DNA of 44,571 nucleotides, the filler included, from Catajapyx aquilonaris (lineage: Eukaryota): NCBI GenBank assembly GCA_000934665.2. It is 2 parts of 2 records of this genome, joined end to end, with 100 filler letters (N's around TTAATTAATTAA, not from the genome) between each part and the next. Parts side by side here need not be neighbours in the genome. Positions count along the whole stretch, not along the records: positions 21,855 to 44,571 come from JYFJ02005990.1; 1 more part is not named here. One strand, given 5' to 3'. Position 1 is the first letter of the stretch, and each line of letters begins with the position of its first letter. The notes beneath the pieces are model-generated. The model saw only the letters and a program-made list of their open reading frames with translations, ran no database searches and was not told the DNA's origin. Shown piece by piece: positions 21,755 to 42,432 of this stretch. A program made the position numbers and the translations under genes.

Positions 21755-21854
21755 NNNNNNNNNNNNNNNNNNNNNNNNNNNNNNNNNNNNNNNNNNNNTT
21801 AATTAATTAANNNNNNNNNNNNNNNNNNNNNNNNNNNNNNNNNNNNNNNNNNNN
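21755..21854. other. Artificial assembly gap/linker
   Basis: Exactly 44 N + TTAATTAATTAA (stop codons in all six frames) + 44 N = 100 bp, a typical synthetic contig spacer. Confidence 0.95.
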
Positions 21855-21985: not shown

Positions 21986-22564
21986 TGTTTTACCAAGTGC
22001 GTGTTAGAAGATATGGGAACTGTAAGTAGCCTACACTAGCTCATCAATATACTGATGTTACAATTGACATAATACTTCTTGTAAAATGTATTGTATACTT
22101 GTCTATTTGTAAAATGTATTGTATACTTGTCTACTTGTAAAATGTATTGTCTACTTGTAAAATGTATGTCTACTTGTCTACTTGTAAAATGTATTGTCTA
22201 CTTGTCTACTTGTAAAATGTATTGTCTACTTGTCTACTTGTAAAGGTATGTGTTTGTCTACATAGATGGACCAGTTTGGACGACTCCTTCCCATGAAAGT
22301 GGCAAACTTGATTGCACCAGGTGAAGACGAAAGGTCATACCGAGCAGTACTTGGAAGCGCCTTCAGCTCATGTCTTGACCAAGGTGATTAATATTAATAT
22401 TATTAATAATAAAAGTATCAATATTACAAGTATATTGTTCTTGCACTTTTGAAGTGGAAGAGGAAATGTCTGAATCTGCTTCGATGGAGGAAGATTCCTG
22501 CGAGCTGGTGAACAGAGTGGTGGACTGCGCAGGACCCGCAGTGGCGCAACAATGTTCCTACTAA
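21986..22564 (+). CDS. OBP-like gene A, 5'-partial (signal-peptide and C1 exons not found, probably lost at the assembly gap)
   Basis: Exons 21986-22021 (CFTKCVLEDMGT), 22266-22383 (MDQFGRLLPMKVANLIAPGEDERSYRAVLGSAFSSCLDQ) and 22455-22564 (VEEEMSESASMEEDSCELVNRVVDCAGPAVAQQCSY*). GT-AG introns keep the frame. Shows C-X3-C and C-X8-C-X8-C. AATAAA at 22624. Confidence 0.8.
22073..22250 (+). repeat. Intronic minisatellite in gene A
   Basis: About 6 imperfect copies of CTTGTAAAATGTATTGT(C/A)TACTTGTCTA. Confidence 0.9.
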
Positions 22565-23003: not shown

Positions 23004-23987
23004 ATGGTGGTTTCTACAATTACTCTGTTTGTGTTGCTGTTAATAGCTGCGACACAAGCTGCCAATGACGTAGGTTACCAGTACCAACTATTATTAATGT
23101 GAAATGATGTTGACATAATATCATAACAGACACTAAAACTTATTGCTATGTTTTATTGCAGGATATTGAGGACTATTGCAGATTTTTGAACTACCAATCG
23201 CAATCAGTCGAAAAAGCCAAGAGTGACTGCGCTTTTTCCAACAATGACGTACATGTTTTTCCAGTGATCTTAGCAATTAATTTACACAACTCACTAATCA
23301 AGGCCTTACTTTCAGTGTAACCTGAGATGCATTTTTCTTAACCTGAAAGTGGTAAGTACAACATTTGCTAAATTGAGTTATCTCAACATTTTAAAAAGAC
23401 ATTGCTAACTATTGTCCTGCGAATATTTTGGCATAAAATGATATTATGTGGACAGCTGGATGCAGAAGGATGGCCTGTCCCGATAAGAGTCGCTGCAGAG
23501 TATGCCCCTGGCGAATCCAACTGGATGCTTCGAGAAGCCCTCCTAAAATACTACGAAATGTGTTTAAATCAAGGTACAATATCTGACTAATCTAATCAAC
23601 ATTTTGCACCCCATTAACTTCACAACAAAATTAATTCCATGGAGCAGTCCCGATCACGAGAGGTCGAGACACAAACGATTGCACTAAGCTGTGGCCAGTG
23701 ACTCAATGCGTGGACCAAGCATTGTTGTATGTAAGTACTATAGCAGCAGCCATATAAGCCAAACCAGGACAAACACGCAAACAAACAAACATTGTCTTTT
23801 ATATGTAAGTTATATAGAAACCTAATAAAACCGGGGTGACTTCAAATACATATAGTTAATTTGTGAAGCATACGAACTAACTTGTAAGACATTTATTAAT
23901 TTCATTTACACAAATGATGTGTTATTAAGTAAATAACGCTCTAATGACATTTTAAATTTTCAGGAATGTAATGGCTACAATAAGTGA
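23004..23987 (+). CDS. OBP-like gene B, secreted 8-Cys protein, 137 aa, 6 exons
   Basis: Exons 23004-23069, 23162-23248, 23316-23351, 23456-23573, 23648-23730, 23964-23987, all GT-AG. Protein: MVVSTITLFVLLLIAATQAANDDIEDYCRFLNYQSQSVEKAKSDCAFSNNDCNLRCIFLNLKVLDAEGWPVPIRVAAEYAPGESNWMLREALLKYYEMCLNQVPITRGRDTNDCTKLWPVTQCVDQALLYECNGYNK. Hydrophobic signal peptide; AATAAA at 24016. Confidence 0.88.
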
Positions 23988-24244
23988 AGCTGTCATTGAA
24001 GAATTGTGATAGACAAATAAATGTCAAAAGTGACGGAAATCCGTGTACATTTTTGTGGATGACCCCACCTTCTCTCTCTATATAGTGTTGATATTATAGT
24101 TTTGTTCTGTGAGCGATAGTTCTTGTCTGATCAAACCGGAAGCAGGCTTGGAGCATCCCCTGATTGGATGGAGACTTTAAATCCGATGTGCACATCCGCA
24201 AAGGCATCCTTTCCAGTGGAAATCCTATTGAAAGTCAGACAATT

Positions 24245-25044
24245 ATGATGCGCTGCCTGCTATTCTTCGCTCTGTTGGCCGCCTGCGCCTTCTCGGCTGC
24301 TGAGGTCAAAGTTCATATATGCTGCACCCGCTGAATATTTGCCACTATAATGTTGTCTCTCATGTACAGGCTGGAACTTGCGCTTACGCACAATACGTCC
24401 CAGAAAATGCCCAGAACGCACAACACGAGTGCCTGAGCAACAGCCCAGAGGTTAGTCTTTCACTTATTATTATTATCATAATTATAATAATTATAATAAT
24501 AACAATTATTATTATTGAATATTAATTGTTAAAATATAACAATTATTTTATCGTTTTCAGTGCTATGACAGATGCCTTCTGGAGAAGCTGAAGTCTGTAA
24601 GTGTGTCTGCTCTACGGCGTCTAAATATTGTAATATCCTGCTGACACTTCAATATTGTTAATTATGAATTTACTGCTAATTGTAGCTGGATAACGAAGGC
24701 TGGCCCCGCCCACGCAAGTTCGCAGACCACTTCATCCCAGAGGCTGCCAACCCCCGATTGCACGAGCTCCTTCGCAGAAGCTTCAGACACTGCCTGCCCA
24801 ACGGTGAGTCCTGATTTGGCCATATTTGGTCTATAATTTGTTTAATTTTTTTCTCCTCTTCTAATTAATTGTAGTCGATCTTCGATCCAACATGGAGAGC
24901 GATTGCGTCACCGTTCAGTCCATCTCTTCCTGCGCATGGCGTGCTTTCTTTAAGGTTTGAAATATTTCAATGTACCATACTGTACACGTCCGAAATTCAG
25001 TTTGTTTACTACATTCTCCCACCTTTTTTTTTCAGGAATGCTAA
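24245..25044 (+). CDS. OBP-like gene C, secreted 8-Cys protein, 127 aa, 6 exons
   Basis: Exons 24245-24304, 24370-24450, 24561-24596, 24686-24803, 24875-24954, 25036-25044. Protein: MMRCLLFFALLAACAFSAAEAGTCAYAQYVPENAQNAQHECLSNSPECYDRCLLEKLKSLDNEGWPRPRKFADHFIPEAANPRLHELLRRSFRHCLPNVDLRSNMESDCVTVQSISSCAWRAFFKEC. AATAAA at 25058. Confidence 0.9.
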
Positions 25045-25694
25045 ATACTTCCATGAGAATAAAGGCGTCCGTGTGTAATACCTGATTTGCATTGAAATAA
25101 ATATCACATTTAGCACAATTAGACATTGGTACTTTTCATTGCGTGCGACTGGTGCATGTTGTTTCAGGAATTATTACTGAAGGATCAGGAGACGTCTGGA
25201 ATAATATAAAAATTGACTCATCACAATTATCGAAATGTAATTTGTATGTAAGTTATAATAAAATCTCACTGTTACAAACGCATACGGCCATCGACTGTAA
25301 CATACCATAAATAAAGCTTAAACTCGCATATTACAGATTTTATTGGCTCCCAAATGGTGCAGTTACTGCAGTCATTATTTGTCCGAAAATTTTCACACAG
25401 TACCACCGAAGCTTCAGCTAGTTATCTCTGTACAGTGTGTAGCCTACTGTACATAATTTATCCAAAAATTAATATAGTTTTTTCGTTTCACTATAGTGAG
25501 CAGTAGAGCCTATAGTTCAGACTCTTTATTTGAAGATTTGTTACGAAAAATGTTTAAAACAATAAATTGCTGGCCATCATTATTTGCAATTTCGGACTTT
25601 AGATAAGAGTTGTTGTACCGGATGCGAACTTTTATAGGCTGGATGGGTTAGTCGCACTTTATCGAAATGTCGTGGGCGAGAAAACTGTATCTCT

Positions 25695-25771
25695 AAACCG
25701 GAAGCAGCAGTCCCACCCACCAACCCGATTGGATTAATTAATTAACTGTCACTTAGGTCATCAGATATAAA
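25695..25771 (+). promoter_or_regulatory. Gene D proximal promoter: ETS-like CCGGAAG, inverted CCAAT, TATA
   Basis: AAACCGGAAGCAG...GATTGGAT...TATAAA. The first two blocks recur upstream of gene C (24133-24169). Confidence 0.55.
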
Positions 25772-25843
25772 GCATTATGTTGCTTCCTGACACTCCCGGA
25801 TTCACCATCGAGTGTCTCACACAATAATTATTATTGTCGAGAG

Positions 25844-26056
25844 ATGCGTTTGCTGCTACTGTTTGTACTGGCCGTTGTCGGCTTCAGCCTTCCAACAGCT
25901 CAGGTAAAATTGTACAGAATATTATTATCACATACTTTATCTCACACGTTGATTTATGCCAGGCCAAAATATGCAATTACATCGATTACGTCAACCAAAG
26001 GACCAAGGACACAAACGCATTCTGTATGTCCCAGAATTCCCATCAGGTACTACTAT

Positions 26057-26153
<97 letters not shown>

Positions 26154-27039
26154 CTTTTCGACAGTGTGTGCCAAAGTGCGTCCTGAAAGATTTGGGAACG
26201 GTGAGATATTTTAAATGCCAGGTTGATTATTATCATTTACGTAATGGAAAGTTAATTTTGATGATTTAAATTTTTTTAGTTGGATCAACATGACTGGCCT
26301 AAGGCAAGAAAAGTTGCGGACAATTTTTTCCCTGAAGCGGTCCATCCCAGATTCCACGAGAACCTTCGTCGATCTTTCAAACACTGCACACCTTCTGGTC
26401 AGCTGTTCATTCAAATTATCCAATTTTTAATTAGAGCGACTAATTTCACATTAAGCTGCTGATTACTCAGGGAGAGTCAATGGGATTTAAAATATTCGGT
26501 CTAATTGGCTGTGAATTAAAATTAATTTTTAGATTATGCTAATGGCCCATTGACTAATGAAATTAGCCTGACAAATAAGCAGCTTAGTGTCCTTAAATAC
26601 ATTACCGCCATTTAAGTTTAAACACACTCTATCGGCTGTATGGGTAGCTATAAAATTTTACTCAACTTGAAACATTTTGCAGAACATGTCCGGTCCAACA
26701 TGGTGGCCGACTGTGAAACTATCCAAACAATCTACAACTGTGCATGGGAAGAATTCGTCAAGGTAAGAAAAGTCTATCGTGGAGTTGCCTACTGTATACA
26801 TTCCGAGCTACATTCATACAAACCTTTATTTAATAATGCTCTACTTTCAAAAAATTGACATAGAGACGAGTATGATTATCGCATATTTACACATGTTAAG
26901 CATATTTTATACTAGTAAAATATGCGATAGACATACTCGTCTCTGTGTCAGCGTATAGGGTATAGATAATTATTAAATTAAATTGTAGTTTAAAATGACA
27001 TTGTGTCTAATACGAATGATTATTTTCCAGGCATGCTAA
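25844..27039 (+). CDS. OBP-like gene D, secreted 8-Cys protein, 128 aa, 6 exons; closest paralog of C
   Basis: Exons 25844-25903, 25963-26046, 26165-26200, 26280-26397, 26683-26762, 27031-27039. Protein: MRLLLLFVLAVVGFSLPTAQAKICNYIDYVNQRTKDTNAFCMSQNSHQCVPKCVLKDLGTLDQHDWPKARKVADNFFPEAVHPRFHENLRRSFKHCTPSEHVRSNMVADCETIQTIYNCAWEEFVKAC. TATAAA at 25766. Confidence 0.9.
26048..26153 (+). repeat. Compound microsatellite (TAC)n(TAA)n in gene D intron 2
   Basis: Directly visible; it fills most of the 118-nt intron 26047-26164. Confidence 0.97.
26856..26950. repeat. Inverted repeat/hairpin in gene D intron 5
   Basis: The left arm TGACATAGAGACGAGTATGATTATCGCATATTTAC pairs with the right arm GTAAAATATGCGATAGACATACTCGTCTCTGTGTCA (about 35-bp stem, about 24-nt loop). 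Confidence 0.9.
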
Positions 27040-27753
27040 ACGATCGGACGTGGAAGAGAGCACAATTTTTTTAAATAATAAAAAAACAGCTTCTCAATAT
27101 CAACATTCTGGAATTGGAGTCAGAAAAATTTCATCCAACGTTTCAAATAGGAAATAATAATAGTAATTAAATCTCTCCAGAAATGGCTATGTAATGTCCC
27201 GTCGCAATAAAAGCAGACAAAGTTATGCAACCTCACCACATAATCATACATTCGCAAATTATGCTTGACAATGCGTGGGATGATGCTGACTAACACATTC
27301 TATGAATATGATAAAAATGCGTGTCAGCATCCGGTTTACGCATTCCCGCAGTCTAATTTACAGGAAATCATCTCAAGCACCTGCGACGTAAGTACCTTAG
27401 TGTTTCACTATATGAGATTGTATGTTTATGCTCGATATTTATAAAAATAATGCGCACTCAACTTCTTGTAAACACATACGATATATGATCTCGGTGCAAT
27501 TAAGGTTTGGCCCGGTGCCACGCACTGCACTTGGGTCATGTAATAATTCTCGGTACTAAATGGCGTAGAAATGCGGAACCGTAATCTGCAGTGACGCCGG
27601 AGTTACATACTGTATATGGAGAGGGCCATAAATCGCATCAAGTTGCGTCGTCAGAATATATATATACGCACCGACGCTCTTTAAATACACTACGTACTCT
27701 ACTCACTCGCTTACTTCACTTTACACCAGTGTTACGAGCAGGTCAGCATCATC

Positions 27754-29428
27754 ATGTACTTCTTCCTCTTGGCTCTTCTGCTCGGATTGTCCTGCTGCCA
27801 ACATGGAACTGCCCAAGGATATGTGAGTTGTCTGGAACAATATTGTTGGGGAGGGTCATTGTTGAGCTGACTTATAATAAGATATTAATATTTTTTAGAG
27901 CAATGGAAACGGGGACTGCCAGCATCTGAACAAGTTGCCTCATTACGTGCAGATGACGCAGTGGGATTGCCTGGCTCAAGACCCTGAAGTAAGTGCATTG
28001 ATTTTTGGTCAAGTACGTAGCACTTAGATTAAGTGAAGTATAGCAGTACGGAGGGCTACAAGTTAAGTGTTTGTAGTAGTTATAGCGATTAATTTCAGCT
28101 GCTATCAAAAATATTATGTGCTAATTTTGAGCCGTAATTGGCTACTTCAAAAGAAAATAATTGTTAGGGTGAACTATTCGTTTTTACAAATTTTTAAATA
28201 TCAGTAGTTAATATTGAAAACATTCACTACAATTATTAAGCATATTAATCATATCGGATTAAAATTTAATTCTCCAAGAATATACAGCAGCAATATTATT
28301 TCATAATTCTCGAAATAAAATTAAATTAAAGGGCGATTCTTGCAAACTGATTTATCTAATAATCTATAGAGCTATTTAGAGCTAATGGCTATTTTTAAAG
28401 CCTTTGATTAAAACAAAGTATCAAAATATATAATATTATCCAAAACATTCGCTACACAATGTAATCATAATCTTATCGGATTAAAATTGAATTCTCGATG
28501 AATATGTACTTATACAAAGTATACAGTAATGATTTTTTTTACTAAAAATGTTTCAATTAAAGGGCGATTCTTGCAAACTGATGCGGTCCTTTCACTAATT
28601 AATCTACAGCTATTTAGAGCTAATTGTCATTTTAAAGCTTCTGATTCAGATGACGTTGCTGCTTGTGAATTATTTCAACTTCTGAATAATTACGATGTGA
28701 GGTTAACCTTCAGTGTGCCATAATATTGTTTGGGAAGTCTACTGAATCATCCTTATGGACGAAACAACATACTGTGCACATGAATAACAAACCATTCACA
28801 TGCTTGTGACGTAACTCTTCGTTACGAAACTGTTCAGATCCTAATTAAATCTGACAAGTCAGAAAATAAACTGTCACCTTTTGTACCCCCAACAATTCTC
28901 GACAAGTAAAATGCCAGACAATTACTTTACATGCTTTCTGTTGTACTTCCAGTGTCATGACAAGTGTGTGTTCAAGAGACTTGGCGTGGTGAGTTATATT
29001 TTTAGATCAGCAAGTGCATCATAAATGCTAATAATTTTCGCCACATTTTGCACTAGATGGATGAAACCGAATGGCCCAAACCATGGGAAATTGCGAAGGA
29101 ATTTGCAGGAGGAAATGTCAACATGCGTCTGTTCAACTCGGCTTGGAGGGCTTTTGCTCACTGCAGTCCTTCCGGTAAATTCATTCAGAAATTTAATTTA
29201 AAAAAATTATGATTAAAAAAAACGAGCTAATTGAATTTTTCTGCAGATGATGCTCGAAGAGGCAGAAGGAGCACATGTCAAGATATTCTGACTTTGGTTC
29301 TGTGCGCTTGGCAGCAAATGTACCAGGTATGACCCTTTCTTTATTAACTGCGTATACTTTGGGCAATGCAATCAACATGTACTAATTACTCGCCTTAATT
29401 TTTGCAGGATTGCGGAGCAGCAAAATAG
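27754..29428 (+). CDS. OBP-like gene E, secreted 8-Cys protein, 137 aa, 6 exons
   Basis: Exons 27754-27822, 27899-27988, 28953-28988, 29057-29174, 29247-29326, 29408-29428. Protein: MYFFLLALLLGLSCCQHGTAQGYSNGNGDCQHLNKLPHYVQMTQWDCLAQDPECHDKCVFKRLGVMDETEWPKPWEIAKEFAGGNVNMRLFNSAWRAFAHCSPSDDARRGRRSTCQDILTLVLCAWQQMYQDCGAAK. Confidence 0.88.
28218..28647 (+). repeat. Tandem duplication of about 200 bp in gene E intron 2
   Basis: ATCGGATTAAAATT, AATTAAAGGGCGATTCTTGCAAACTGAT and AGCTATTTAGAGCTAAT each occur twice in order (about 28218-28410 and 28443-28647). Confidence 0.8.
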
Positions 29429-30770
29429 GCATGTTGGAGGGCAACACAAGACTTAAGACTGCATTTACTGAGCTGTTTACTATAATCGCAACATAATGGC
29501 AATAATTTTAATACTCATTTTTAATATACATGCGATTCTGCCAAGCAATGATTTATGCTTGATAATGTTTAAAAAATGTGCTTATTACGTGGGTATTCCC
29601 CAGGGCAATATGCTGACATAACAGTGCAAGTAACACTATTAAAGTTGTTCACTCCCAGGGGAAGTCGGCGCATGTACATAAATTGTCCACTTCAAGGCTG
29701 CCAAGTACTCGTATAATAATAATTATAAATAACCTCGCACTGTAAGTTTCACCAATAAAAATTCATTGCATGTCATTAGACCGCATATTGAGTTTTTGTT
29801 TGAGAATGAAAACGATTTTGTTTCAGGAGTTCAATTTGGATGTGTTTGGGAAATTCGACTTGCCTTTCTGATTGTTGCATGATGTTGTCTACATGAAAAA
29901 TTAATGTTGTGACACTTCCACGGGAAGAAACTTTCCGAATTTTCCCAGAAATTTATTTTCCAAGACTTAAAACAGGTTTAAAGGACTGTAGAGGAGAATA
30001 ATTATCAATTTACATTTAATTATTATTCGCATGCTGTACAGTGTACTGCAGCTGCAGTTTACTCATGGAAGTAAAAAAGAGTATGAAATTAGCCATTCAA
30101 ATTCATTTTTTTTGATCTCAAAGATTTCTGTCACATGGTGTCGTAAGAGTGTGACGTGTCACTGTGTATAAAACAAGTCCAAGATCACAGGAATGTCGCG
30201 CGTGCAAATAAAATGTGTCCTCAGCCATATCCGTTTCAAATTTGTGTGTTTAAAATCAATTCGCGTCGCGTCGTCTGTCGCCTGATCTCTTTTTTTTCGC
30301 GAAATGACGAGAGTTTTTTTTTTTTAAAAAAAGAGAGACGTTGCGAAATGATTGGGTTACGCCCTTGGCCCATTGAATTAAGTAGCGACCTTGGCATTGC
30401 GTAATTTTTGAAGATGAACCAGCACACTCCCCCAGCCATAAATTTAGACAGCAATAAACCCATTCCTTCATCTTCATCTTTTTTTTTAAAAGTCACTTCC
30501 GCGCCAGAAGGATATGGGACCCAAGAATGGCGTGTTTGTTCCCGGTGTGTGTATATGCCAGCTTCTTCATCTCATGACACATACACGTACACATTGCGCT
30601 TGTTACCCCCTAAACGAGACGCTCATTAACTTTTTATGGGGGTTGAAATTGCGACGTTACTGCTTCTTACTGGCTCAGGACAGGAAATCAACATAATTAC
30701 GTGACACATCAACAATGTCCAGAAATTGATTATATAATCTTAATGGCATAAAAATATTTTTACAAAGTCA

Positions 30771-31228
30771 TGCTTGAAGTTCAAAAAAACATGACACAAA
30801 TTTTTGCAAGTCTAACCCAACCTAACCTACATCACAGGCGATTAAACTATTTATTCTGCAATTAGTGTATATACCTTTCATATTTTCTCATTCGTAATCT
30901 AATGTAGCGTACTATTGTCTGTCAGAAAATATTTAAAATTCAATCCTAATATTCTTCCCATAACAACGGCCAAAAATGATATTACCAATTATTTACAAAA
31001 TGCTGCAAATATTTGTTACAAATAATTACTGCTTGAAGTTCAAAAAAAACATGACATTTTGCAAGTCTATAATCTAATAAGATTTCCATCACAGTTGATT
31101 ACTCTCTAATTCTTCTGCAATTAGTGTCTACCTTTCATATTTCTAATTCGTAGTCTAATGTACTATTGTCTGTCCGAAAAATTTTAAAATTAAATCCTAA
31201 AGTTCTTCCCCATAAAACGGTCAAAAAA
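30771..31228 (+). repeat. Direct duplication of about 200 bp upstream of gene F
   Basis: 30771-30976 and 31030-31228 share TGCTTGAAGTTCAAAAAAACATGACA, CTGCAATTAGTGT, TACTATTGTCTGTC and AATCCTAA-TTCTTCCC. Confidence 0.85.
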
Positions 31229-31407
31229 ACAATGAATGAAATTTCCAGGAAAAGAATATGCAAAAAAATGGCGAGAAATTAACCCCCGTGTAGTTTTTTG
31301 CACTGACACGAATGTGGCGAGTGTCTCTTCCCACAACCTTGAGAGAATTGTATGCACAAAAAAAAGGTGTAAATTTTAATCCAAGAGACGATGCGGAACA
31401 GCATCCG

Positions 31408-31414
31408 TATAAAA
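31408..31414 (+). promoter_or_regulatory. TATA box of gene F
   Basis: TATAAAA lies 59 nt upstream of the ATG at 31467. Confidence 0.6.
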
Positions 31415-31466
31415 GCAAGGAACGAGGTGGAAAAGGAAGAAAAGGTGTGAAAGGACAGCTCCAAAG

Positions 31467-32488
31467 ATGATCAAGGCCTTCCTCATCGCTCTTTGCTTCC
31501 TGCAAGTCGTCCTGGTAAATCAAATTTAATTGTCTTACATTGGTTTTTTTGTACAAACAAATAGGGTAAAAACATTCTTCTCTCAAAACTGGGTACTCAT
31601 TGTACTGTACATATAATAATTATTTTTAACTGTGATTTTTTCCCCTTTCAAATAAGGCTGATGATGATCACAAGTGCTGGGATGAATCTAAAGTTCCGGA
31701 TGATTGGAAGGCAATAGATCAGAAATGCGGAACTGATAACGATAACGCCGACGAAGTTACTGCGGTAAATTATTTTTAAATAGGTTATTAAATTCGCACA
31801 ATAATTTGAATATTTTTTGCCGACTCAACGCAACGGGCTAAACCGCACATAATAAATAATAAAAATCTCACTTTCTTCTTCAGTATGTCAACCCCTTCAC
31901 AAATTGCCTCATGATGTGTGTTAAAATATTTTACTGAAACTGGCAGTTAAATTATTATTATGCAGTTTATAATATCATGTTAAAATACACAGCGGGACAG
32001 GGTTAAAAGGGGTGATAATAATAATGATAATAACAAACATTTCGGTTTTCAGTGCCAGTTCAAGTGCTACCTGGAGAATCATAAGCTGGTAAGTTACTAA
32101 CAGTCAAACTCGAGTTTGACTGCAATTTTAATAATAATTAATATTTGAAACACTTTCAGGTGGATGATTCAGGTCATCCCTTACTGGAAAGATTCATTGA
32201 AACGATGAAATTGGCTGCATATGATCAGTACAGGGATCAATTAAACGCAGCAACTAAGACTTGCTTGGACCAAGAAGGTCAGTAAAATTAACCAGGATGG
32301 TCACTAACGGCGATTAAAACATGCTCGGTTTAATTGCAGGAGAGAATGTGGATCCTGAAGGTGATGATTGTGCTGGTTACCAGGCTCTTCTGGACTGCCT
32401 GAGAACCAAGTTTCATGAGGTAAGAAGTTCATGTAATATTTGAGAAGTACATTATGTAATTTCATGTTTTTTTTTGCAGTTTTGCTAA
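31467..32488 (+). CDS. OBP-like gene F, acidic secreted 8-Cys protein, 132 aa, 6 exons
   Basis: Exons 31467-31514, 31657-31764, 32053-32088, 32160-32277, 32340-32419, 32480-32488. Protein: MIKAFLIALCFLQVVLADDDHKCWDESKVPDDWKAIDQKCGTDNDNADEVTACQFKCYLENHKLVDDSGHPLLERFIETMKLAAYDQYRDQLNAATKTCLDQEGENVDPEGDDCAGYQALLDCLRTKFHEFC. TATAAAA at 31408. Confidence 0.9.
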
Positions 32489-33148
32489 CTTGTCTTTTTT
32501 TTCGGCAACGGACAAGTAGAAGATCGGATGCCAGTAATGAAACATACCCTGTAATACTGTATCATCGCAAATAAATAATTTGCAAGTTATTCCTTATAAG
32601 TATTATTATAATGTGACTCTAACAATGTTTTTTTCCGTCTAATTTATGTAGTCTGCAGTTTTCAAACCTAATGGTTACTTTAACCATATAAAATTGCTAT
32701 TTTTCGTTAAATGGCTTCTAATTGTGGGTCCAAAAATAGTGAAAAAATTCAGACTTGTTACATACTTGTACATTGAAGGCATCTTCGGCTGCCACCCACA
32801 AATTTTTTATTACAATAAAATTTTTAAACAAGAAACAAACTATATGCTGGACGTATTAATACTTTCATTTTTGGAGTACATTTTTTATACTTTTTATGAG
32901 CATATTTCGACATTTTGGGCGTGAGTAGCAGCCACATTCATCTATACGTAATAAAAGTGATTTCATATTTTTAAATTACTTTAAAGGAGCTAACTGCGCA
33001 TAATTTGTGCAAGTATTTGTGTTGCAGCACCCTGCATATGTACCCTAAATCAGTTTACAGCCTGTTTCCGTGACGAACAACTGGCTACGGTAATTATTCA
33101 GCCGTGAAATCGGACTGAAGGACCTTCCTGTCCTGTAAAATTGAGTCT

Positions 33149-33156
33149 TATATAAA
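33149..33156 (+). promoter_or_regulatory. TATA box of gene G
   Basis: TATATAAA lies 39 nt upstream of the ATG at 33188. Confidence 0.55.
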
Positions 33157-33187
33157 GAGAGTTTTACAGGTTTTGTTGTCTGCAATC

Positions 33188-33868
33188 ATGGCTATGCGTC
33201 TCATCGGATTGTTGTTTGCTGTGGTCGCAGGCGTGCCTTTGGAAGGTCCAGGCGGCTGTCCGGATTCGATGCCTTGGATCCCTGACATTGCGCATCCGGA
33301 CTGTCCAGTCTCGGAAGAGGTAACTTGCAAACATTATTAAACCGGACATATTAACGAACATCCAAAATATTTCTAGTGCCAGCAACGTTGCCTATTGGAA
33401 CGAAAAGGACTGGCAAGTACCTCACACCAGACCATGTACAGTGTAATGTAATGAATATTGCTCTGTACCTTATCGTACCAGCTGTACTATGATGGGTTCG
33501 TGGACATCGGACGAATCTACGAGCTGATCCACGACGTCCATGTGCCCTTCAGGCTTCAGGAAATGGTCGAGTCTATGGCAGACACCTGCTTCCACATGCA
33601 CGGTAAGACTGGAAAAAAAGAGTGATTGGAAAATGAGGCCTGTCAGGTTTGACTACTGTACAAATGATATTAATGTTCGTTGAAAGGTGAGGAGGCAGGT
33701 GAATGGGGTTATATGGAAGAGCGCCAGATGAACAGGTGTGAACCTTACGAGAGATTCGCCGATTGTCTACGTACCAACAGCAAATTGGTAAGTCAACACG
33801 TCACGCTTTTTTGCATCTTCTGTAGTGTTCACATTATTATTTTTTCTCTCCAGGTGTGTCCAAAGTGA
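33188..33868 (+). CDS. OBP-like gene G, secreted 8-Cys protein, about 134 aa, 5 exons, one GC-AG intron
   Basis: Exons 33188-33319, 33377-33412 (donor CTG|GCAAGT), 33482-33602, 33687-33787 (an alternative in-frame acceptor lies 12 nt downstream), 33854-33868. Protein: MAMRLIGLLFAVVAGVPLEGPGGCPDSMPWIPDIAHPDCPVSEECQQRCLLERKGLLYYDGFVDIGRIYELIHDVHVPFRLQEMVESMADTCFHMHGEEAGEWGYMEERQMNRCEPYERFADCLRTNSKLVCPK. TATATAAA at 33149. Confidence 0.83.
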
Positions 33869-34583
33869 GCATCATTTCATCGCCAGCCATGAATATAGTC
33901 AATGTCTGCAATAAATTTCGTTACAAGTTGTGCCCAGTCATTTTTGTGAATTATCCAGCCCCATGTGTGATGTGTAATCTACACATGTACAGTTGTACAC
34001 GCTCTGAATATTCTCCAAATGGAAATTAGTATTTTTAGGCGAATTAGGATAGACAAATAAAGCTGGTAATTATTTCAAGTAAATCGATTGCCTTTCCGTT
34101 TACTGACTTATTCCGAACATAAAGTTCATGTCTCCTACAGTATACATTACACCGAAAGTGAAACGAAAGCCACCTGGGGTCAGTACATTACTTTCACACG
34201 ACATTGTTAACAATAACGCGGAAACCTGATGTGTTATAATTCCTTCTATTTTTTTTGTGACGGGTCAAACCAACACGTAATTTTAATGCGTCCATCACGC
34301 AAGAGAGCGCAACATCACACGGCCATGCTCTTCCTGTGCGCTTTATTCAGCGGTCTTCTTGATGGACATTGTCGCCTGCCTATTGTTGCCAAGTGTCACG
34401 AGTTTAGCGGCCAACTGCCAGCTTCCGCCTTCCGTATTTGCCACATAACACCGGAGATGCACGTATCCTGATTGCAATATTTTTTTTTTAAAAAAAATAA
34501 TGAGAGCCAATAAACACCTCCTATATTAAGCCGCGCTCGATGCCAATAATTCTCACAAACTTTTAAAAAATCCGAGCTTGAAG

Positions 34584-35287
34584 ATGAAGCTTGTCGTTTG
34601 TATGTGTTTGCTGATATTAGGTGCAGATGCCGACACCTTCGAAAATGTAAGTTAAATTATGCAAATTATAATTATTTTGAAGTTTAAATCCGTTCACTCT
34701 ACTGCAATCCTGACTTCAAGCTGTTGTTAATTAATTAATTGATGTGTTGCAGTTTGAAGGATCTGGTACTTCACCCGGCCGTAATTGCGATCGAGAGTCG
34801 ATTCCTGAGGTAAGTACTGTACACAAAAGTACTTTAGCTCTGTACGTAAAATAGATAAGAAGCACTCATTTATCTTGGGTGATTTCAGTGCGCATTCCGA
34901 TGCAGCTTGATGGATACGAAACTGGTAAAAAGTTCAAGGTGAGATCAAATTGAGCCCGTGACATTTTTGTTTGTCAATCTTTCAGCTGAACTCAGAAGGG
35001 AAAGTAGACCAGACTCAAGTGGACACACAAATTCGACAGATGATGGAGGATAACAAGGCTTCTCACAAGAGAGATCTCCAGGCACTCAAAGCCTTGAAGC
35101 AATGCTCGCAAATGAAAGGTCAGAAATTATTGCTTTATAATAGTTAAAAAGTATTTTCTGCGTGTCAAAGTTCAAGCTACTGAACTATTGTGCTTTTTAA
35201 TTCACAGAAACAGTAGTAGACCCAACCCTGTCTGATTGTCAAGGATACACTCCTCTCTACAACTGTTTCATTCAACGCATGAACTAA
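34584..35287 (+). CDS. OBP-like gene H, secreted 6-Cys protein, 122 aa, 5 exons
   Basis: Exons 34584-34646, 34753-34809, 34889-34924, 34986-35118, 35208-35287. Protein: MKLVVCMCLLILGADADTFENFEGSGTSPGRNCDRESIPECAFRCSLMDTKLLNSEGKVDQTQVDTQIRQMMGDNKASHKRDLQALKALKQCSQMKETVVDPTLSDCQGYTPLYNCFIQRMN. AATAAA follows near 35330. Confidence 0.87.
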
Positions 35288-35804
35288 TACGCCCTGAAAA
35301 TTTGTTAATTAGTCTAATCGCACTTTAGAAATAAAAATTGGTCAGCCATTAACCAGGTGTCACCCAACTTCCCAACAGAATACTCTGCATTTTTCAGTGA
35401 GTTTAAACAACATGTTCCGTCAAAACGAAAGTATTTTTTTGCGCAATATAGGTCATGGTGCATTTTTGTTGTATCTTCAAATTGTTATCCTTACTCCCAT
35501 TTTTGGGGTTAAGTAATTACCCTTCCAGCCTTGCCAAAAATGCGGCTAATTATATAAAGTTACCGAAGAAGCATCACACCTTAATTGTCATGAAATAATA
35601 AGTCACGCAAATTTTGCCCCCAATATAAAATTTAGAGGCTGCAACATCCGGAGGTGTGTTTGCAGGGGGTGGCCATTGCCCAAAAAAAACCACCCACTTC
35701 CATATCACGCCCTACATATTATACACACACAAATACTGAGTGTCTGTATATATATTGGGATGCGACTCATCCTCATTGCCTCAGTAATTGTTGAAGTACA
35801 GACC

Positions 35805-37079
35805 ATGATGCTGGTGCTCGGGATTCTGTTGTGTTCAGTCTGTGTCTCTGCTGGACCAGGACAACAATGCATGGATAACATGAGGAGCAGGAGTGAGGTA
35901 TATGTTGCATTACACTCATTACCTTTTTTATCAATTAAATGAAGTAAGGTCGCTTTATCATTCAGATCATTGTTCAAAAAAAAAGTCTACTCACCCTAAA
36001 GGTAATGAGCTTAAATATTAGCGAAGAACAGTGCCAGTTTTACATCAAATTAACGGCTCAATAACCAACTTTGAAAATCCCGAGTATTACCCATCGAGTG
36101 TTCATGTCAAAGTTGCATGACCCCTGTTCGCTCATTGCGCAATGACAAAGCTGTTGAGTAACTCTAGCTGCTTCCTCCCACTATTCATGACCCATTGTCG
36201 CACTTATGGTGTAATCGTTCCGGTTTTGTGTCGTACTTGATACAATTAGGGCAGATCGAGTACAATCCTCGAATTGAGATAACAGTATTTTTTTGTCAAT
36301 AATTTTCTGGCTTTATTTCCAGTGCCTCTCTCGATGTTTGCTGGACAAATTGGGACTGGTGAGTACTACTTACTCTCGGAGTAACCTTTTTATCGCAAAG
36401 AGAAAAAAATTAATTGCACTTTCGCGTCGGTTCAATGTTATTGCTTCTGATTATTAACAGCGATGTTTTTTTTCAAGCTGGATGAAAAAGGCCGACTTGT
36501 GCAATCGATTCTGAGGCAGGAGTTTCCTAATTATTGGGAACCGCCAACTACAACCGGGGCACCTTCTGACACCGTGTCGCTGTCAGAGGTCGTGACCTGC
36601 CTCAAAGAAGAAGGTGACCAAAGGGAAAGTGATACTGAGCCCACATTAAATCAAAATGAATATTTTGCTACATTTTATGAAGCATGTTCGTTCTGACGGT
36701 TTTGCAAGCAGCAGAAATATTAAATCCTGATATTATTGTAATATTAAGATAATTATGCCTACCACTTTGATCTGTAATCAAGTGATTCGCATGTGCGTCT
36801 TTGGGTTGGCAATGTTAATGTTGCTTCCTGCCTTTCAAAATTTTACTATAGCTTCAACTGTCTGTTACAGCCAAAGTGGTTCAGACGGAGAAGCTGACGT
36901 GCAAGGACTACGACAACCTGATGTACTGCACCATACTGCATCCCAAGGAACAATATTACGACGAATACGACACAATCGAAAGCGGCGATCCACAACCTGG
37001 TGTCCATCTCGCAGGAAGTGTATCAGCTCAAAACAACAAACATATTTTTCTTCCGCCTCTGATACTACGACGGCATTAG
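35805..37079 (+). CDS. OBP-like gene I, secreted 6-Cys protein with a 49-aa C-terminal tail, about 157 aa (169 aa if candidate exon 35966-36001 is used)
   Basis: Exons 35805-35897 (MMLVLGILLCSVCVSAGPGQQCMDNMRSRSE), 36323-36358 (CLSRCLLDKLGL), 36478-36613 (LDEKGRLVQSILRQEFPNYWEPPTTTGAPSDTVSLSEVVTCLKEE) and 36871-37079 (AKVVQTEKLTCKDYDNLMYCTILHPKEQYYDEYDTIESGDPQPGVHLAGSVSAQNNKHIFLPPLILRRH*). TATA-like run near 35748; AATAAA immediately after the stop. Confidence 0.8.
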
Positions 37080-37494
37080 ATGACAAATAAACTTACCTCT
37101 TAACAGGAATATTTATGTGAATGGTGCACTATTCTGTATAAACCGACAATCAGAAACTATCAGTTTGAAATAAATTAAGGTTGGCTCCCTGGACCTGGGC
37201 ATTCCTACACATAAAGAATTGAAGTTCTCACAGTAGTTACGTCAAAGGAAACTATCATTTTAATAGCCAGTTTTTTGACCTAGCCCGACTGAATAAAGGA
37301 TTGAATGGACAACAATGGTGCGAGGAAGTCACTGCACAGTTTCCCATAGGAGGAGAACAGATGAAGCATGATCTCGTGTGACTTGGGTGCATTTAGATGA
37401 GAAATTTTACGAGTTGTCATTAACTAGATACAAAAGAGGGTTTATGATGGCCACAGGAAATGCGCAATTTTTTATATAAAAAAACGCAGGTTAC

Positions 37495-37526
37495 TATAAA
37501 GATCAGTGTCGCACACTATGTCATTG
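37495..37526 (+). promoter_or_regulatory. TATA box plus initiator-like element of gene J (equivalents at 39595 for K and 41647 for L)
   Basis: CTATAAAGAT is conserved in all three paralogs. TCA(T/C)TGTCAC follows 26 nt after the TATA in J and K and 35 nt after it in L, then GAGCAACATG at the start codon. Confidence 0.7.
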
Positions 37527-37551
37527 TCACGGCTGACGACATCAGAGCAAC

Positions 37552-38004
37552 ATGAAGGGTTTGCTCTTGATGTCTCTGGTTCTGATCGCCATTCAGTCTG
37601 TGGTCCATGCGCAGGGCGAGGAGGGTAAGGTCGGTATTGCCTAATCAAAATACTCCCAAAATATGAGAATAATATTTTTTCCTCTTATTAATTTTCTCAC
37701 AAGTGTTTGCTATTACTTGTAGTGTCCAGAGCAAAGAGTGATATCTTCCGTGCTTGCGAGTTGCATGAACAGAAAACCCCGAACTAAGCGAGGATTACCA
37801 CCCGAAATGGCCGCGAAATTTACTCCTGTAAGTTGGAAATCTCTAAAGCCCATGCCTTTATAATCAGATTAATATTATATATATAATAATTAATAATATA
37901 TATCATTATAAATTCCAGTGCTCCCTCAAGTGCCTAATGAAAAGGTTGAACCTGGTAAGGCCTACTGGATGTGAACATTTTGCACCACTTCTAATAACAA
38001 TAGC

Positions 38005-38090
<86 letters not shown>

Positions 38091-38374
38091 GTCATTAAGC
38101 TTGACGGCAATGGTCGCATGCTGAAGGAGAAAGCATTGGCACTGATGGACGACTGCAGCAAACAGTACAAAATGTTCGAGGATGTACTGAAGCAGGCTAT
38201 GGCGTGTGCCGATGCACATGGTAACAATTAACAGGACAATATATTGTACCTTCAGTTACGAGTACTAACATTGCGTTCGTTTCATTTTCAGCCGAGGAGG
38301 TAGACGGGAATGAAAAGGACCCCTGCCCTTCCTTCCGGGGCTACAGAAGCTGCGTATTTGATGTGCCCAACTGA
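37552..38374 (+). CDS. OBP-like gene J, secreted 8-Cys protein with an internal RTKR site, 140 aa, 5 exons
   Basis: Exons 37552-37629, 37723-37827, 37919-37954, 38100-38220, 38292-38374. Protein: MKGLLLMSLVLIAIQSVVHAQGEEGKCPEQRVISSVLASCMNRKPRTKRGLPPEMAAKFTPCSLKCLMKRLNLLDGNGRMLKEKALALMDDCSKQYKMFEDVLKQAMACADAHAEEVDGNEKDPCPSFRGYRSCVFDVPN. TATAAA at 37495. Confidence 0.9.
38005..38090 (+). repeat. (TTA)n microsatellite, gene J intron 3
   Basis: Directly visible. Confidence 0.97.
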
Positions 38375-39020
38375 ACTTTGTGTAACAAGAAGAAGGATAA
38401 AAGCGGATAAAATAATTATGTAAACCTAATTATAAAGTACAGCGGGACCCACCAATATTACGCCAACTGCAATCATTACAGCCTCCTGTAACCAGCATAT
38501 ACTGAGAGCTAATAAACTATTTTTATCAGCATGCGAATGGATTTCACTAGCCAAGCAAATCATGAAGCTACAGCTCACTGTTTTATCCATAGAGTGCAAT
38601 TTTATCAAAGCGGTTTTATCACAGTTTCAACAATAGCAGTAGTGATGATTTACGATGGTCAGTAAAGAAAAAGACAAACAGACTAATGAATAAATAACTA
38701 AATAACTACATTAGACAGAAAGGAAGGAAGAAATCAAATGATTTGGATTCTGGAGGAAACAATTATTCTGAATTATCCTAAAAATTGCACAATTAAAATG
38801 GAGAATTTATCCCTTCAATATGGTCGCTGATGGGAATTACAAAAATATATTCTAAACCTACATGACTGCCATGAAATTCTTATTGTTCAATAAAATAAAT
38901 AATTATTGCACTATAAAGGCGTGGCCTGCACAAAAATGATGTGGTCAAGTGAGTCACATTGGCAAAATATTGTCACGTAATTGACCACATAATCAGGGAA
39001 CAATCAGGGAACAATGCTGT

Positions 39021-39264
39021 ATTGAGATAACAGCTAGTTCTAAGCAATTTTCTGCTTTATTTCCCGTGCCTCTCTCGATGCTTGCTGGATAAATTGGAAC
39101 CTGGTGAGTACTATACTCTGGGAGTAACCTGCAAATTTTTATCGCAAAGAGAAAAATTAATATTGCACTTTTGCGTCGGTTCAATATTGGCTAAATTATT
39201 GCTTCGGATTAACTGTGACGTTGGCTTTTTTAAAGCTGCATGAAAAAGGTCCGACTTGTGCAAT
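39021..39264 (+). pseudogene. Pseudogenic fragment of a gene-I duplicate
   Basis: Homologous to about 36272-36505. The micro-exon copy 39067-39103 (CLSRCLLDKLE...) has its acceptor changed from AG to CG and a 1-nt insertion (37 nt). The next intron is retained. The next exon is cut after about 29 nt (39236-39264) and fused to sequence homologous to the gene-J upstream region (37170 onward). Confidence 0.85.
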
Positions 39265-39651
39265 AAATTAAGGTTGGCTCCCTGGACCTGCTGGATATTC
39301 CTATAGATACACATAGAAATGCAGTTCTCACACTAGTTACGTCAAAGGAAACCATCATTTTAATGGCCAGTTTTTTTGACCTAGCCCGACTGAATAAAGG
39401 ATTGAATGGACAACAATGGTGCGAGGAAGTCACTGCACAGTTTCCCAGAGAACAGGTGCAACATGATCTCGTGTGACTTGGATGCATTTAGGTGTCGAAA
39501 TTTTACGAGTTGTGATTAACAAGATGCAAAAGAGGGTTTGTGATGGCCACAGGAAGTGCGCAATGGTCGCATTTAAAAAAGAAGCCCAGGTTACTATAAA
39601 GATCAGTGTCGCACACAATGTCATTGTCACAGCTGACGACATCAGAGCAAC

Positions 39652-40065
39652 ATGAAGTGTTTGCTCATAATGTCTCTGGTTCTGATCACCATTCAGTCTG
39701 TTGTCCATGCACAGGATGAGGAGGGTAAGGTCGGTATTGCCTAATCAAAATACTCCCAAAATATCAGTATAATATTTTCCTCTTTCGTAGTGTCCAGAGC
39801 AAAAAGTGTTAACGAACGTGTTTGCGGGATGCATGAGCAGAAAACCCCGAACTAAGCGAGAAATACCTCCCGACGTAACCGAGAAATTTACTCCTGTAAG
39901 TTGGAAATCTCTAAGCCCATGCCTTTATAATCAGATTAATAATATATTATTAATATAATATATATAATTATTCCAGTGCGTCCTCAAGTGCTCAATGAAA
40001 AGGTTGAAACTGGTAAGGCTTGTTGGATGTAACATTCTGAACCATTTCTAATATAACATTGAGTC

Positions 40066-40140
<75 letters not shown>

Positions 40141-40437
40141 GCTTGACGACAATGGTCGCATGCTGAAGGAGAGAGCATTGGCAATATTGAACGACTGCAG
40201 TAAACAGTACAAAATGTTCGAGGAAGTACTGAAACTGGTCATCGTGTGCATCGAAAGACATGGTAACAATATTAATTGGACAATAAATAATTATTTTACC
40301 TTCAGTTACTAGTGCTATTAAACATTGCGTTCGTTTCATTTTCAGCCGAGGAGTTAGACGGGAATGAAAAGGACCCCTGCCCTTCCTTCAGGGGCTTCAG
40401 AGACTGCGTAGTTGATGTGGCCAACGAAGCCCTTTAA
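39652..40437 (+). CDS. OBP-like gene K, recent paralog of J, internal RTKR site, 143 aa, 5 exons
   Basis: Exons 39652-39729, 39791-39895, 39977-40012, 40142-40262, 40346-40437. Protein: MKCLLIMSLVLITIQSVVHAQDEEGKCPEQKVLTNVFAGCMSRKPRTKREIPPDVTEKFTPCVLKCSMKRLKLLDDNGRMLKERALAILNDCSKQYKMFEEVLKLVIVCIERHAEELDGNEKDPCPSFRGFRDCVVDVANEAL. TATAAA at 39595. Confidence 0.9.
40066..40139 (+). repeat. (TTA)n microsatellite, gene K intron 3
   Basis: Directly visible; it abuts the acceptor AG. Confidence 0.97.
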
Positions 40438-41710
40438 CAAGAAGCTGATATAATTATTATGTAAACCTGATTATAAAATACAGCGGGACCCACCAATATT
40501 ACGCCAACTGCAATAATTACCAGCACACTGTGATAGCCAATAAAGTCGTTTATCAAACAATATAATATGATTTCACTCACAAGCAAATGTGGGTTCATCA
40601 TGAAGCTACAAAGGATGGCTCACTGCTTTATCAAAGTTTCAACAATAGCGTATAGTGGGTTAAGATGGTCAGTAAACAAACAAACAGACAGACAGACGAA
40701 TGATTAAATAACTAAATAAAGAAATAAAAAGAAAGAAGTTCAATGCTTTTGATTATGGAGGAAACAAGATTATTTTAAATTATCCTAAAAATGCACAATT
40801 TACTTACTGGTGGTGTGTTATACGATGGTTAGTAAACAAATAAACAAACAAACAAATTCAATGTTTTGGATTATGGAGGAAAAAATTATTATAAATTATC
40901 CTAAAAATTTGACAATTATTAAAATAAAGAATTTAGCCCTTCAATATTGCTCATTGGAATGACTTAAAATTTATTCTGAACCAATAAATGATGCAATGAA
41001 ATTATTATTGTTCAATAAAATAAAAATTGCACTAAAGGCGTGGCCTGCACAAAAATGATGTGGTCAGTCACATTGGCAAATATTGTCACGTTATTGGCCA
41101 CATAATAATCAGGGAATATCGGCAACAATGCTGTATATTGGTTGCTAGATAATTTTTTATGAGCGCAACCGAATGCGCACTTGCGTTTGTACAAAAATCA
41201 TCTTTAGGAGGCATATTTTCGTACATCGCTCAGCACCAATCTGTGTAAATTGACACATTCCTAAACCTAATTATCATTATGTAATTATTTTAGGTTTGCT
41301 CACTGATATGTACAAAATATCTGTACGTATAGCCACTAATACGATGCGAAGTTCTCACAGTAGTTGCACAACAGGAAACTATAATTTTAAACGCGTTTTT
41401 TGACATATAGCGACCGGTCTGGATGGCTAACGCCCGACTGAATAAGGATTCCACAGGAATAACGACACTGGACAACAATGGTGTCGAGGAAGGTCCGACT
41501 GCAACAGATTCGCATCGAATAGATCCTCATCGCGTGCGACTTTTTCGTTACCATTAGGCGTCGAAATCCCCTCTGGGTTACGAGATGGCGTCTAATTCGA
41601 TGACCACAGGAAGTCCGCAATCGTCACGCTTGTCCTTCCCTCCGACTATAAAGATGCAGGGAGTGACCACACAACCGGTTATCACTGTCACCAGACGACA
41701 TCTGAGCAAC

Positions 41711-42064
41711 ATGAAGGTCTTGCTCCTAACAGCTCTGGTTCTGATCGCCATCCAGTCTGTAGTAGTAGTCCATGCACAGGATGATAATAAGGTCTGTAAT
41801 GCCTATTCTTGTTCCGGACAGTACTGTGTTGTAACACATTGTTTTAGTGCCCAGATAAACAGGTGGTTATGAGCGTGGTGGGGGGTTGCTTCGCCACAGG
41901 CGGCCGAAGGAAGCGAAACATGCCTCCAGAGATGGCAGAGAGGATCACTCCTGTAAGTGTTAGCCTTTAATTTAATTTATATTTCATTAAAATAATGCAT
42001 GTCCTCGTAATAATTTCAGTGTGTCGTCAAGTGCATCATGCAGGGTCTGAATCTGGTAATTATT

Positions 42065-42142
<78 letters not shown>

Positions 42143-42432
42143 GTTCGACTCCANCTCCAGTAACAAAATGCCGAAGGAAAGAGGATTGGCCATATTGGAC
42201 GACTGCATGACACAATACCCAATGTTCGCCCCTATCCTGGAGAAGGCCAAGGAGTGCGTCGCAACTCATGGTAACAATATATTAACTGGACAATAGAACC
42301 TTCAGATGCGACTTGTAATATTGCGTGAATTATTTTTTTTCAGCCGATAGTTTAGATGGAAAAGATAAGGAGCCCTGCCCAACCTTCAGTCCCTTCAGAG
42401 AGTGTTTAATCAAGGCAGTCATGGGAGGTTAA
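41711..42432 (+). CDS. OBP-like gene L, paralog of J/K, internal RRKR site, about 143-145 aa, 5 exons
   Basis: Exons 41711-41791, 41848-41952, 42020-42055, 42144-42270, 42344-42432. Protein: MKVLLLTALVLIAIQSVVVVHAQDDNKCPDKQVVMSVVGGCFATGGRRKRNMPPEMAERITPCVVKCIMQGLNLFDS(XS)SNKMPKERGLAILDDCMTQYPMFAPILEKAKECVATHADSLDGKDKEPCPTFSPFRECLIKAVMGG. The CTCCA-N-CTCCA at 42149-42159 looks like an assembly-join duplication (in frame, +6 nt versus J/K). TATAAA at 41647. Confidence 0.88.
42066..42142 (+). repeat. (TTA)n microsatellite, gene L intron 3
   Basis: Directly visible; the last unit forms the TAG acceptor. Confidence 0.97.

Follow-up and report, generated by a model that had tools for sequence, protein, structure and literature searches.

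In a 44,571-nucleotide (nt) stretch of genomic DNA from Catajapyx aquilonaris (assembly GCA_000934665.2; two parts joined with 100 filler letters and called the window below), the plus strand from ~21.9 kb to at least 42.1 kb carries a tandem array of small multi-exon genes. The array holds at least 12 small secreted-protein genes, and B–H are intact members of it. We name their cysteines relative to the C1–C6 series of odorant-binding proteins (OBPs): Cb is the nearest cysteine upstream of C2, Ca is the further upstream cysteine, and C7 is the cysteine after C6. The products of B–H are interpreted as probable insect OBP-type secreted proteins, in which the C-terminal two-thirds keep the classic frame C2-X3-C3-X41-46-C4-X13-21-C5-X8-C6 and the N-terminal part is cut down, with a polar turn of 5–7 residues (12 in F) linking Cb to helix 3. 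The best reading of these sequences, to which we give a moderately high probability, is that the proximal cysteine Cb is C1 and that helix 2 has been lost.

Gene models and the eighth cysteine

Family genes were located through a 36-nt exon that codes for C-X3-C plus seven residues and is flanked by a polypyrimidine-AG acceptor and a GT donor. In its strict form this pattern gave 13 matches, 11 of them family members, and the copy in G, which has a GC donor, was found separately. Using three-frame views and splice signals, we rebuilt B–H by hand from the raw sequence and checked the joins by script. The resulting models have six exons in B–F and five in both G, where exons 1 and 2 are fused, and H, which is without the terminal micro-exon:

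23004..23987, plus strand: gene B, six exons (23004-23069, 23162-23248, 23316-23351, 23456-23573, 23648-23730, 23964-23987); 137 amino acids, 8 mature Cys, all introns GT-AG
24245..25044, plus strand: gene C, six exons (24245-24304, 24370-24450, 24561-24596, 24686-24803, 24875-24954, 25036-25044); 127 amino acids, 8 mature Cys
25844..27039, plus strand: gene D, six exons (25844-25903, 25963-26046, 26165-26200, 26280-26397, 26683-26762, 27031-27039); 128 amino acids, 8 Cys
27754..29428, plus strand: gene E, six exons (27754-27822, 27899-27988, 28953-28988, 29057-29174, 29247-29326, 29408-29428); 137 amino acids, 8 mature Cys
31467..32488, plus strand: gene F, six exons (31467-31514, 31657-31764, 32053-32088, 32160-32277, 32340-32419, 32480-32488); 132 amino acids, 8 mature Cys
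33188..33868, plus strand: gene G, five exons (33188-33319, 33377-33412, 33482-33602, 33687-33787, 33854-33868); 134 amino acids, 8 Cys
34584..35287, plus strand: gene H, five exons (34584-34646, 34753-34809, 34889-34924, 34986-35118, 35208-35287); 122 amino acids, 6 mature Cys, without Ca and C7

Of the 33 introns of B–H, 32 are GT-AG and one, in G, is GC-AG. That intron (33413-33481), which follows the 36-nt exon, has the donor GCAAGT; in the ten complete models B–L, which together contain 41 introns, no other donor departs from GT. The seven products are open frames of 122–137 amino acids, each with a hydrophobic N-terminal leader of 15–21 residues; with signal-peptide cleavage sites placed by eye, the mature proteins have 106–119 residues. 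Exon phases and junction positions are identical across these seven diverged paralogues. The interval to which an earlier note on this DNA had drawn attention, 23162..34924, has exact boundaries, running from the start of exon 2 of B to the end of exon 3 of H.

In B–G, the open frame of exon 5 ends at, or one codon past, a GT at a conserved phase-0 position. A strong acceptor follows 60–268 nt downstream, and then an exon of 9–24 nt that reads x-Cys and reaches a stop within five codons:

23964-23987, 25036-25044, 27031-27039, 29408-29428, 32480-32488 and 33854-33868, plus strand: terminal micro-exons of B–G, each coding for x-Cys plus 0–5 residues and a stop

In gene C this exon is only 9 nt long, codes for x-C-stop and is preceded by a tract with pyrimidines at 18 of 19 positions. 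C7 itself is constant in position, 8 residues past C6 in all six genes. Over the whole window the micro-exon pattern occurs 12 times on the plus strand and 8 times on the minus strand, and the chance that six of six genes would have a micro-exon within the observed distances is about 1e-10. C7 is also confirmed independently of the micro-exon by gene A, in which C6-X8-C7 lies inside a single exon with no intron:

21986..22564, plus strand: gene A, 3' part only, exons 21986-22021, 22266-22383 and 22455-22564, with C5, C6 and C7 in one exon

The 5' exons of gene A are lost at two 44-base runs of N (21755-21798 and 21811-21854, an assembly gap) immediately before its 36-nt exon, and the status of Ca and Cb in this gene is unreadable. 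A C-terminal read-through open reading frame (ORF) in D was rejected as the source of an eighth cysteine, because the conserved donor and micro-exon account for all six genes. Exon 5 of H runs to a stop codon of its own and has neither a donor nor C7. At 35529-35549, ~240 nt past that stop, an acceptor and a short x-Cys frame resemble the micro-exons; given how exon 5 of H now ends, this element may be what is left of an exon 6 that has been lost.

The gene models behind the earlier note were thus incomplete in B–G, where the terminal micro-exon was missed and the mature proteins have eight cysteines, not seven. The eighth cysteine changes the disulfide logic of that reading. Annotation based on ORFs would miss the 9-nt exon that carries it.

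In the spliced products, the spacings Ca-Cb, Cb-C2, C2-C3, C3-C4, C4-C5, C5-C6 and C6-C7 are, in this order:

Gene B: 16, 6, 3, 42, 14, 8, 8
Gene C: 16, 6, 3, 42, 13, 8, 8
Gene D: 16, 7, 3, 42, 13, 8, 8
Gene E: 16, 6, 3, 42, 13, 8, 8
Gene F: 16, 12 (the longest Cb-C2), 3, 41, 14, 8, 8
Gene G: 14, 5 (the shortest Cb-C2), 3, 42, 21, 8, 8
Gene H: no Ca, 7, 3, 46, 14, 8, no C7

Independent splice models therefore reproduce, in seven of seven genes, the Cb-C2 distances on which the earlier note was built (6, 6, 7, 6, 12, 5 and 7 in B–H). The same models recover its upstream C-X14/16-C pattern (Ca-Cb of 16 in B–F and 14 in G), its C4-C5 range of 13–21 and the single cysteine that it described between the leader and C2 of H. 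The Cb column is retained in paralogues with 15–50% identity, which argues that Cb is not there by chance.

Cysteine pairing, helix 2 and family membership

Among the eight complete short-linker genes (B–I; gene I is described below), six have both Ca and C7, two (H and I) have neither, and none has only one. This joint absence suggests that Ca and C7 form a pair, leaving Cb to bond C3 as C1 does. The most likely partners are thus Ca and C7, with Cb in the role of the true C1. The proposal that the proximal cysteine is the true C1 had been made in the earlier note from H; it now draws support from both H and I, and from a match in spacing to VdesOBP1, an OBP of the mite Varroa destructor.

The part of the chain that precedes C2 is short. 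We count 24–36 mature residues before C2 in B–H and ~15 in gene I (cleavage sites by eye), about 15–20 fewer than in textbook classic OBPs, which leaves room for one helix at most before helix 3, whichever cysteine is C1. The Cb-C2 linkers are short, polar and of the N-cap kind, rich in Ser, Asn, Asp, Pro and Glu. In a propensity scan they sit between helix-prone stretches, with one such stretch ending at Cb in B–F; the scan is of the Chou-Fasman type, over-predicts helix and is a crude guide only. Judged from the sequence, a polar linker of 5–7 residues cannot hold helix 2.

In the explanation that we favor, Cb would be the equivalent of the classic C1 and would bond C3, the C2-C5 and C4-C6 bridges would form as usual, and a fourth bridge would connect the distal Ca to the C-terminal C7. 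Helix 3 would follow directly after a short helix 1, in place of which G, H and I might have just a tethered coil, and helix 2 would be absent. In classic OBPs, helix 2 closes the pocket. The product would be a compact carrier with at most five helices, in which, as in VdesOBP1, the N-terminal strand would be fastened to the C-terminus; its ligand cavity would probably be open, or else closed by other elements.

With respect to family membership, C2-X3-C3 and C5-X8-C6 of the published OBP motif (PMC2808328, Table 2) are present in seven of seven genes. The C3-C4 distances of 41–46 and C4-C5 distances of 13–21 lie within the ranges X21-46 and X7-28 that the same source gives for six insect orders; under a narrower hemipteran C4-C5 motif of X8-14 (PMC4605488), six of the seven genes fit and G falls outside. 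The C1-C2 distance of at least 20 is found in none of the seven genes with Cb as C1, and with Ca as C1 it is 20–29 in six of seven, H having no Ca. Searches beyond the window returned no relatives. A HMMER profile of exon 4 built from 8 rows had no match at E ≤ 0.001 in 1.84 billion representative proteins, and an 11-row alignment of exon 4, for which 7999 candidates were scored, had none at E ≤ 0.1. A search for relatives with exon 4 of gene C, including longer lengths, gave no candidate, and the ESM Atlas gave no usable match to the same exon. Pfam applied to 107 flanking ORFs of at least 60 amino acids produced one sub-threshold chance match.

Several observations weigh against the reading of B–H as OBP-type proteins with Cb as C1 and without helix 2: (i) The Ca-C2 distance of 20–29 in B–G is inside the published classic C1-C2 ranges (PMC2808328), and a motif-based classifier would call B–G classic OBPs with two extra cysteines. 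(ii) H and I, which sit on long branches, form one clade in 12% of bootstrap trees, and the pair Ca and C7 may have been lost once, not twice. (iii) The segment before Cb in G and H is Pro- or Gly-rich and does not look helical in the crude scan, and some members may have fewer than five helices, with a tethered coil there instead. (iv) B has an in-frame alternative donor at 23264, 15 nt downstream, which would add 5 residues to the linker. (v) Among 17 single-exon peptides, none matched PF01395 at E up to 10, where there were four sub-threshold chance matches only, and the exon-4 profile found two chance matches (E 0.54 and 3) and no OBP among PDB sequences. With no family or PDB match at the exon level, the case for OBP membership is built on the cysteine frame, the presence of a signal peptide, protein size and the tandem organization.

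Three other explanations were considered. If Ca were the true C1 and bonded C3, the Ca-Cb stretch would be the helix-2 region and Cb-C7 the extra bridge, and the missing element would be helix 1, not helix 2, with only 2–9 residues preceding Ca. The Ca-C2 distances in B–G do fit the published classic C1-C2 range of X20-68. However, H and I keep Cb and have lost both Ca and C7, so that Cb and C3, formerly non-partners, would have to re-pair, and in VdesOBP1 it is the far N-terminal cysteine that bonds the C-terminal one. Even with Ca as C1 there would be one helix at most before helix 3, and the proteins would be shortened anyway. We consider this pairing unlikely. Should the proteins not be relatives of OBPs at all, they would represent an unrelated secreted cysteine-rich family that reached OBP-like spacing by convergence. 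The lack of any family or structure match at the exon level points in this direction, as do the empty exon-4 profile search of 1.84 billion proteins and the lack of a usable match in the language-model atlas. Four consecutive spacings (X3, X41-46, X13-21 and X8), however, fit the OBP frame in seven of seven genes; the signal peptide, the 106–119 mature residues and the tandem array are also OBP-like, and searches at the exon level have little power for a family whose members share only 10–15% identity between orders, the figure given in PMC8222343. Convergence seems to us distinctly improbable.

The short linker could also be an artefact of the gene models, with a missed exon or another donor lengthening C1-C2 in the real mRNA. 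The intron between exon 2 and the 36-nt exon measures 67 nt in B, 110 in C, 118 in D, 57 in G, 79 in H, 964 in E and 288 in F. By length, the introns of E and F could hold an exon, and the alternative donor of B would also lengthen the linker. In B, C, D, G and H, however, an extra exon together with two introns cannot fit, given that these introns are 57–118 nt long and the smallest intron of the array has 57 nt; furthermore, the seven diverged paralogues agree in exon phases and junction positions. A hidden exon at this place, which the earlier note had named among the findings that would overturn its proposal, is thus excluded by intron length in five of seven genes, E and F being long enough to contain one. 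We assign the artefact only a very small probability. The assignment of Cb as C1, with loss of helix 2, is retained as the best reading, and under it motif-based pipelines would mislabel Ca as C1.

Neighboring genes of the array

Downstream of H the array continues with gene I and with a second type of gene:

35805..37079, plus strand: gene I, exons 35805-35897, 36323-36358, 36478-36613 and 36871-37079
37552..38374, plus strand: gene J, exons 37552-37629, 37723-37827, 37919-37954, 38100-38220 and 38292-38374
39011-39264, plus strand: fragment K, a truncated copy of I
39652..40437, plus strand: gene L, exons 39652-39729, 39791-39895, 39977-40012, 40142-40262 and 40346-40437

Gene I has one cysteine 9 residues before C2 and no cysteine past C6. 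Its N-terminus is the most reduced of the array, and C6 is followed by an acidic, Tyr-rich tail of roughly 50 residues. J, L and M (the last at about 41700-42300) constitute a second subfamily with the pattern C-X12-C-X21-C2, an extra cysteine in exon 4 and no C7, i.e., an eight-cysteine layout in which a proline-rich interval of classic length precedes C2. A block duplication relates 36262-38450 to 39011-40491: L repeats J, together with the spacer upstream of it, at 83–89% DNA identity, and fragment K repeats, at 80% identity, 250 nt of gene I that cover exon 3 and the beginning of exon 4. Long trinucleotide microsatellites of the ATT/TAT/AAT type lie inside array introns at 24455-24525, 26047-26150, 38000-38095 and 40050-40140; the long open frames of poly-I, poly-Y, poly-L and poly-N that they create are spurious.

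Comparison with known OBP classes

OBPs are the standard model for odorant solubilisation in arthropods, and cysteine patterns define their classes (classic, Minus-C, Plus-C, atypical and chelicerate). This scheme would be broadened by a class that combines a C1-C2 turn of 5–7 residues with a fourth bridge, from the N- to the C-terminus; such a class would also provide a minimal scaffold of natural origin in which the pocket is exposed.

The classic motif, C1-X20-68-C2-X3-C3-X21-46-C4-X7-28-C5-X8-C6, summarizes 570 insect OBPs from six orders (PMC2808328, Table 2). The array resembles classic insect OBPs (PBP_GOBP, PF01395) in that its C2-C3, C3-C4, C4-C5 and C5-C6 distances fall within the published ranges, and also in signal peptide, protein size and tandem arrangement. 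It differs from them in the nearest cysteine before C2, which stands at 5–12 residues and not at 20 or more, and in two further conserved cysteines, Ca and C7. Of the two classic ranges that the earlier note quoted, 8–12 residues for C4-C5 was too narrow, since Table 2 of PMC2808328 lists X8-14 in several orders and X8-28 in Diptera; its point that the short Cb-C2 interval falls outside the classic range stands against the published X20-68.

Plus-C OBPs, with the motif C1-X8-41-C2-X3-C3-X39-47-C4-X17-29-C4a-X9-C5-X8-C6-P-X9-11-C6a (PMC4605488, citing Zhou et al. 2008), share with B–G eight conserved cysteines, one of them past C6, and theirs is the sole motif among those published in these sources in which C1-C2 reaches down to 8. 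The array differs from Plus-C OBPs in three respects: (i) No cysteine corresponding to C4a lies between C4 and C5 in any of the seven genes. (ii) None of the seven has Pro after C6, the residues there being V, A, A, A, L, L and F in B–H. (iii) C7 of the array is at X8, compared with X10-12 for C6a, and the other extra cysteine of the array is N-terminal. In the open PMC and bioRxiv literature, the coverage of which is limited so that these negatives are weak evidence, 'eight conserved cysteines' was used only for Plus-C OBPs, and neither a C1-X5-7-C2 class nor an insect-type OBP with an N-to-C-terminus bridge was found.

OBPs were long reported only from Hexapoda, according to PMC4145409 and PMC5850775. 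In VdesOBP1 (PDB entries 7NYJ and 7NZA), cysteines at positions 21, 41, 68, 111, 132 and 141 form the bridges 21-141, 41-68 and 111-132, as established by mass spectrometry and crystallography (PMC8222343). As described there, bridges 41-68 and 111-132 coincide with C1-C3 and C4-C6 of classic OBPs, the extended N-terminus is attached to the last helix through 21-141, and the fold has five helices, without helix 2, and a wide-open cavity. The five-helix form without helix 2 has been extended to spider-mite OBPs (TurtOBPs) by modelling (PMC8269058). As a concept, therefore, the possibly undescribed five-helix variant of the earlier note is not new, and that claim is weakened, because a helix-2-less five-helix OBP with a wide-open cavity has already been published in VdesOBP1 (PMC8222343).

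The spacings of VdesOBP1 are 19, 26, 42, 20 and 8, compared with Ca-Cb 16, Cb-C3 10, C3-C4 42, C4-C6 22–23 and C6-C7 8 in B–E. Compared by spacing and not by sequence, the two share an N-terminal cysteine 14–19 residues before the helix-1 cysteine, a C-terminal cysteine 8 residues past the last helix cysteine, 42 residues from the helix-3 cysteine to C4 and, as we infer for the array, an N-to-C-terminus bridge and no helix 2. They differ in that VdesOBP1 has six cysteines, no C-X3-C and no C2-C5 bridge, whereas B–G have eight cysteines with C-X3-C, and in the distance between the helix-1 cysteine and that of the next helix, which is 26 residues in VdesOBP1, where a loop joins the two helices, and 9–16 in the array.

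If the match to VdesOBP1 reflects common descent, the array would link the insect and chelicerate folds, a relationship that is open in the field. It is conceivable, and we offer this only tentatively, that the eight-cysteine proteins represent or preserve the architecture of a common precursor of insect and chelicerate OBPs. Insect OBPs would then be derived by loss of Ca-C7 and chelicerate OBPs by loss of C2-C5. The authors of the mite OBP work report that no such ancestor was found in sequence databases (PMC8269058). As far as spacing can tell, the array pattern is the mite pattern plus the insect C2-C5 pair, and the array looks like a more compact eight-cysteine variant in which the insect and chelicerate disulfide sets are combined.

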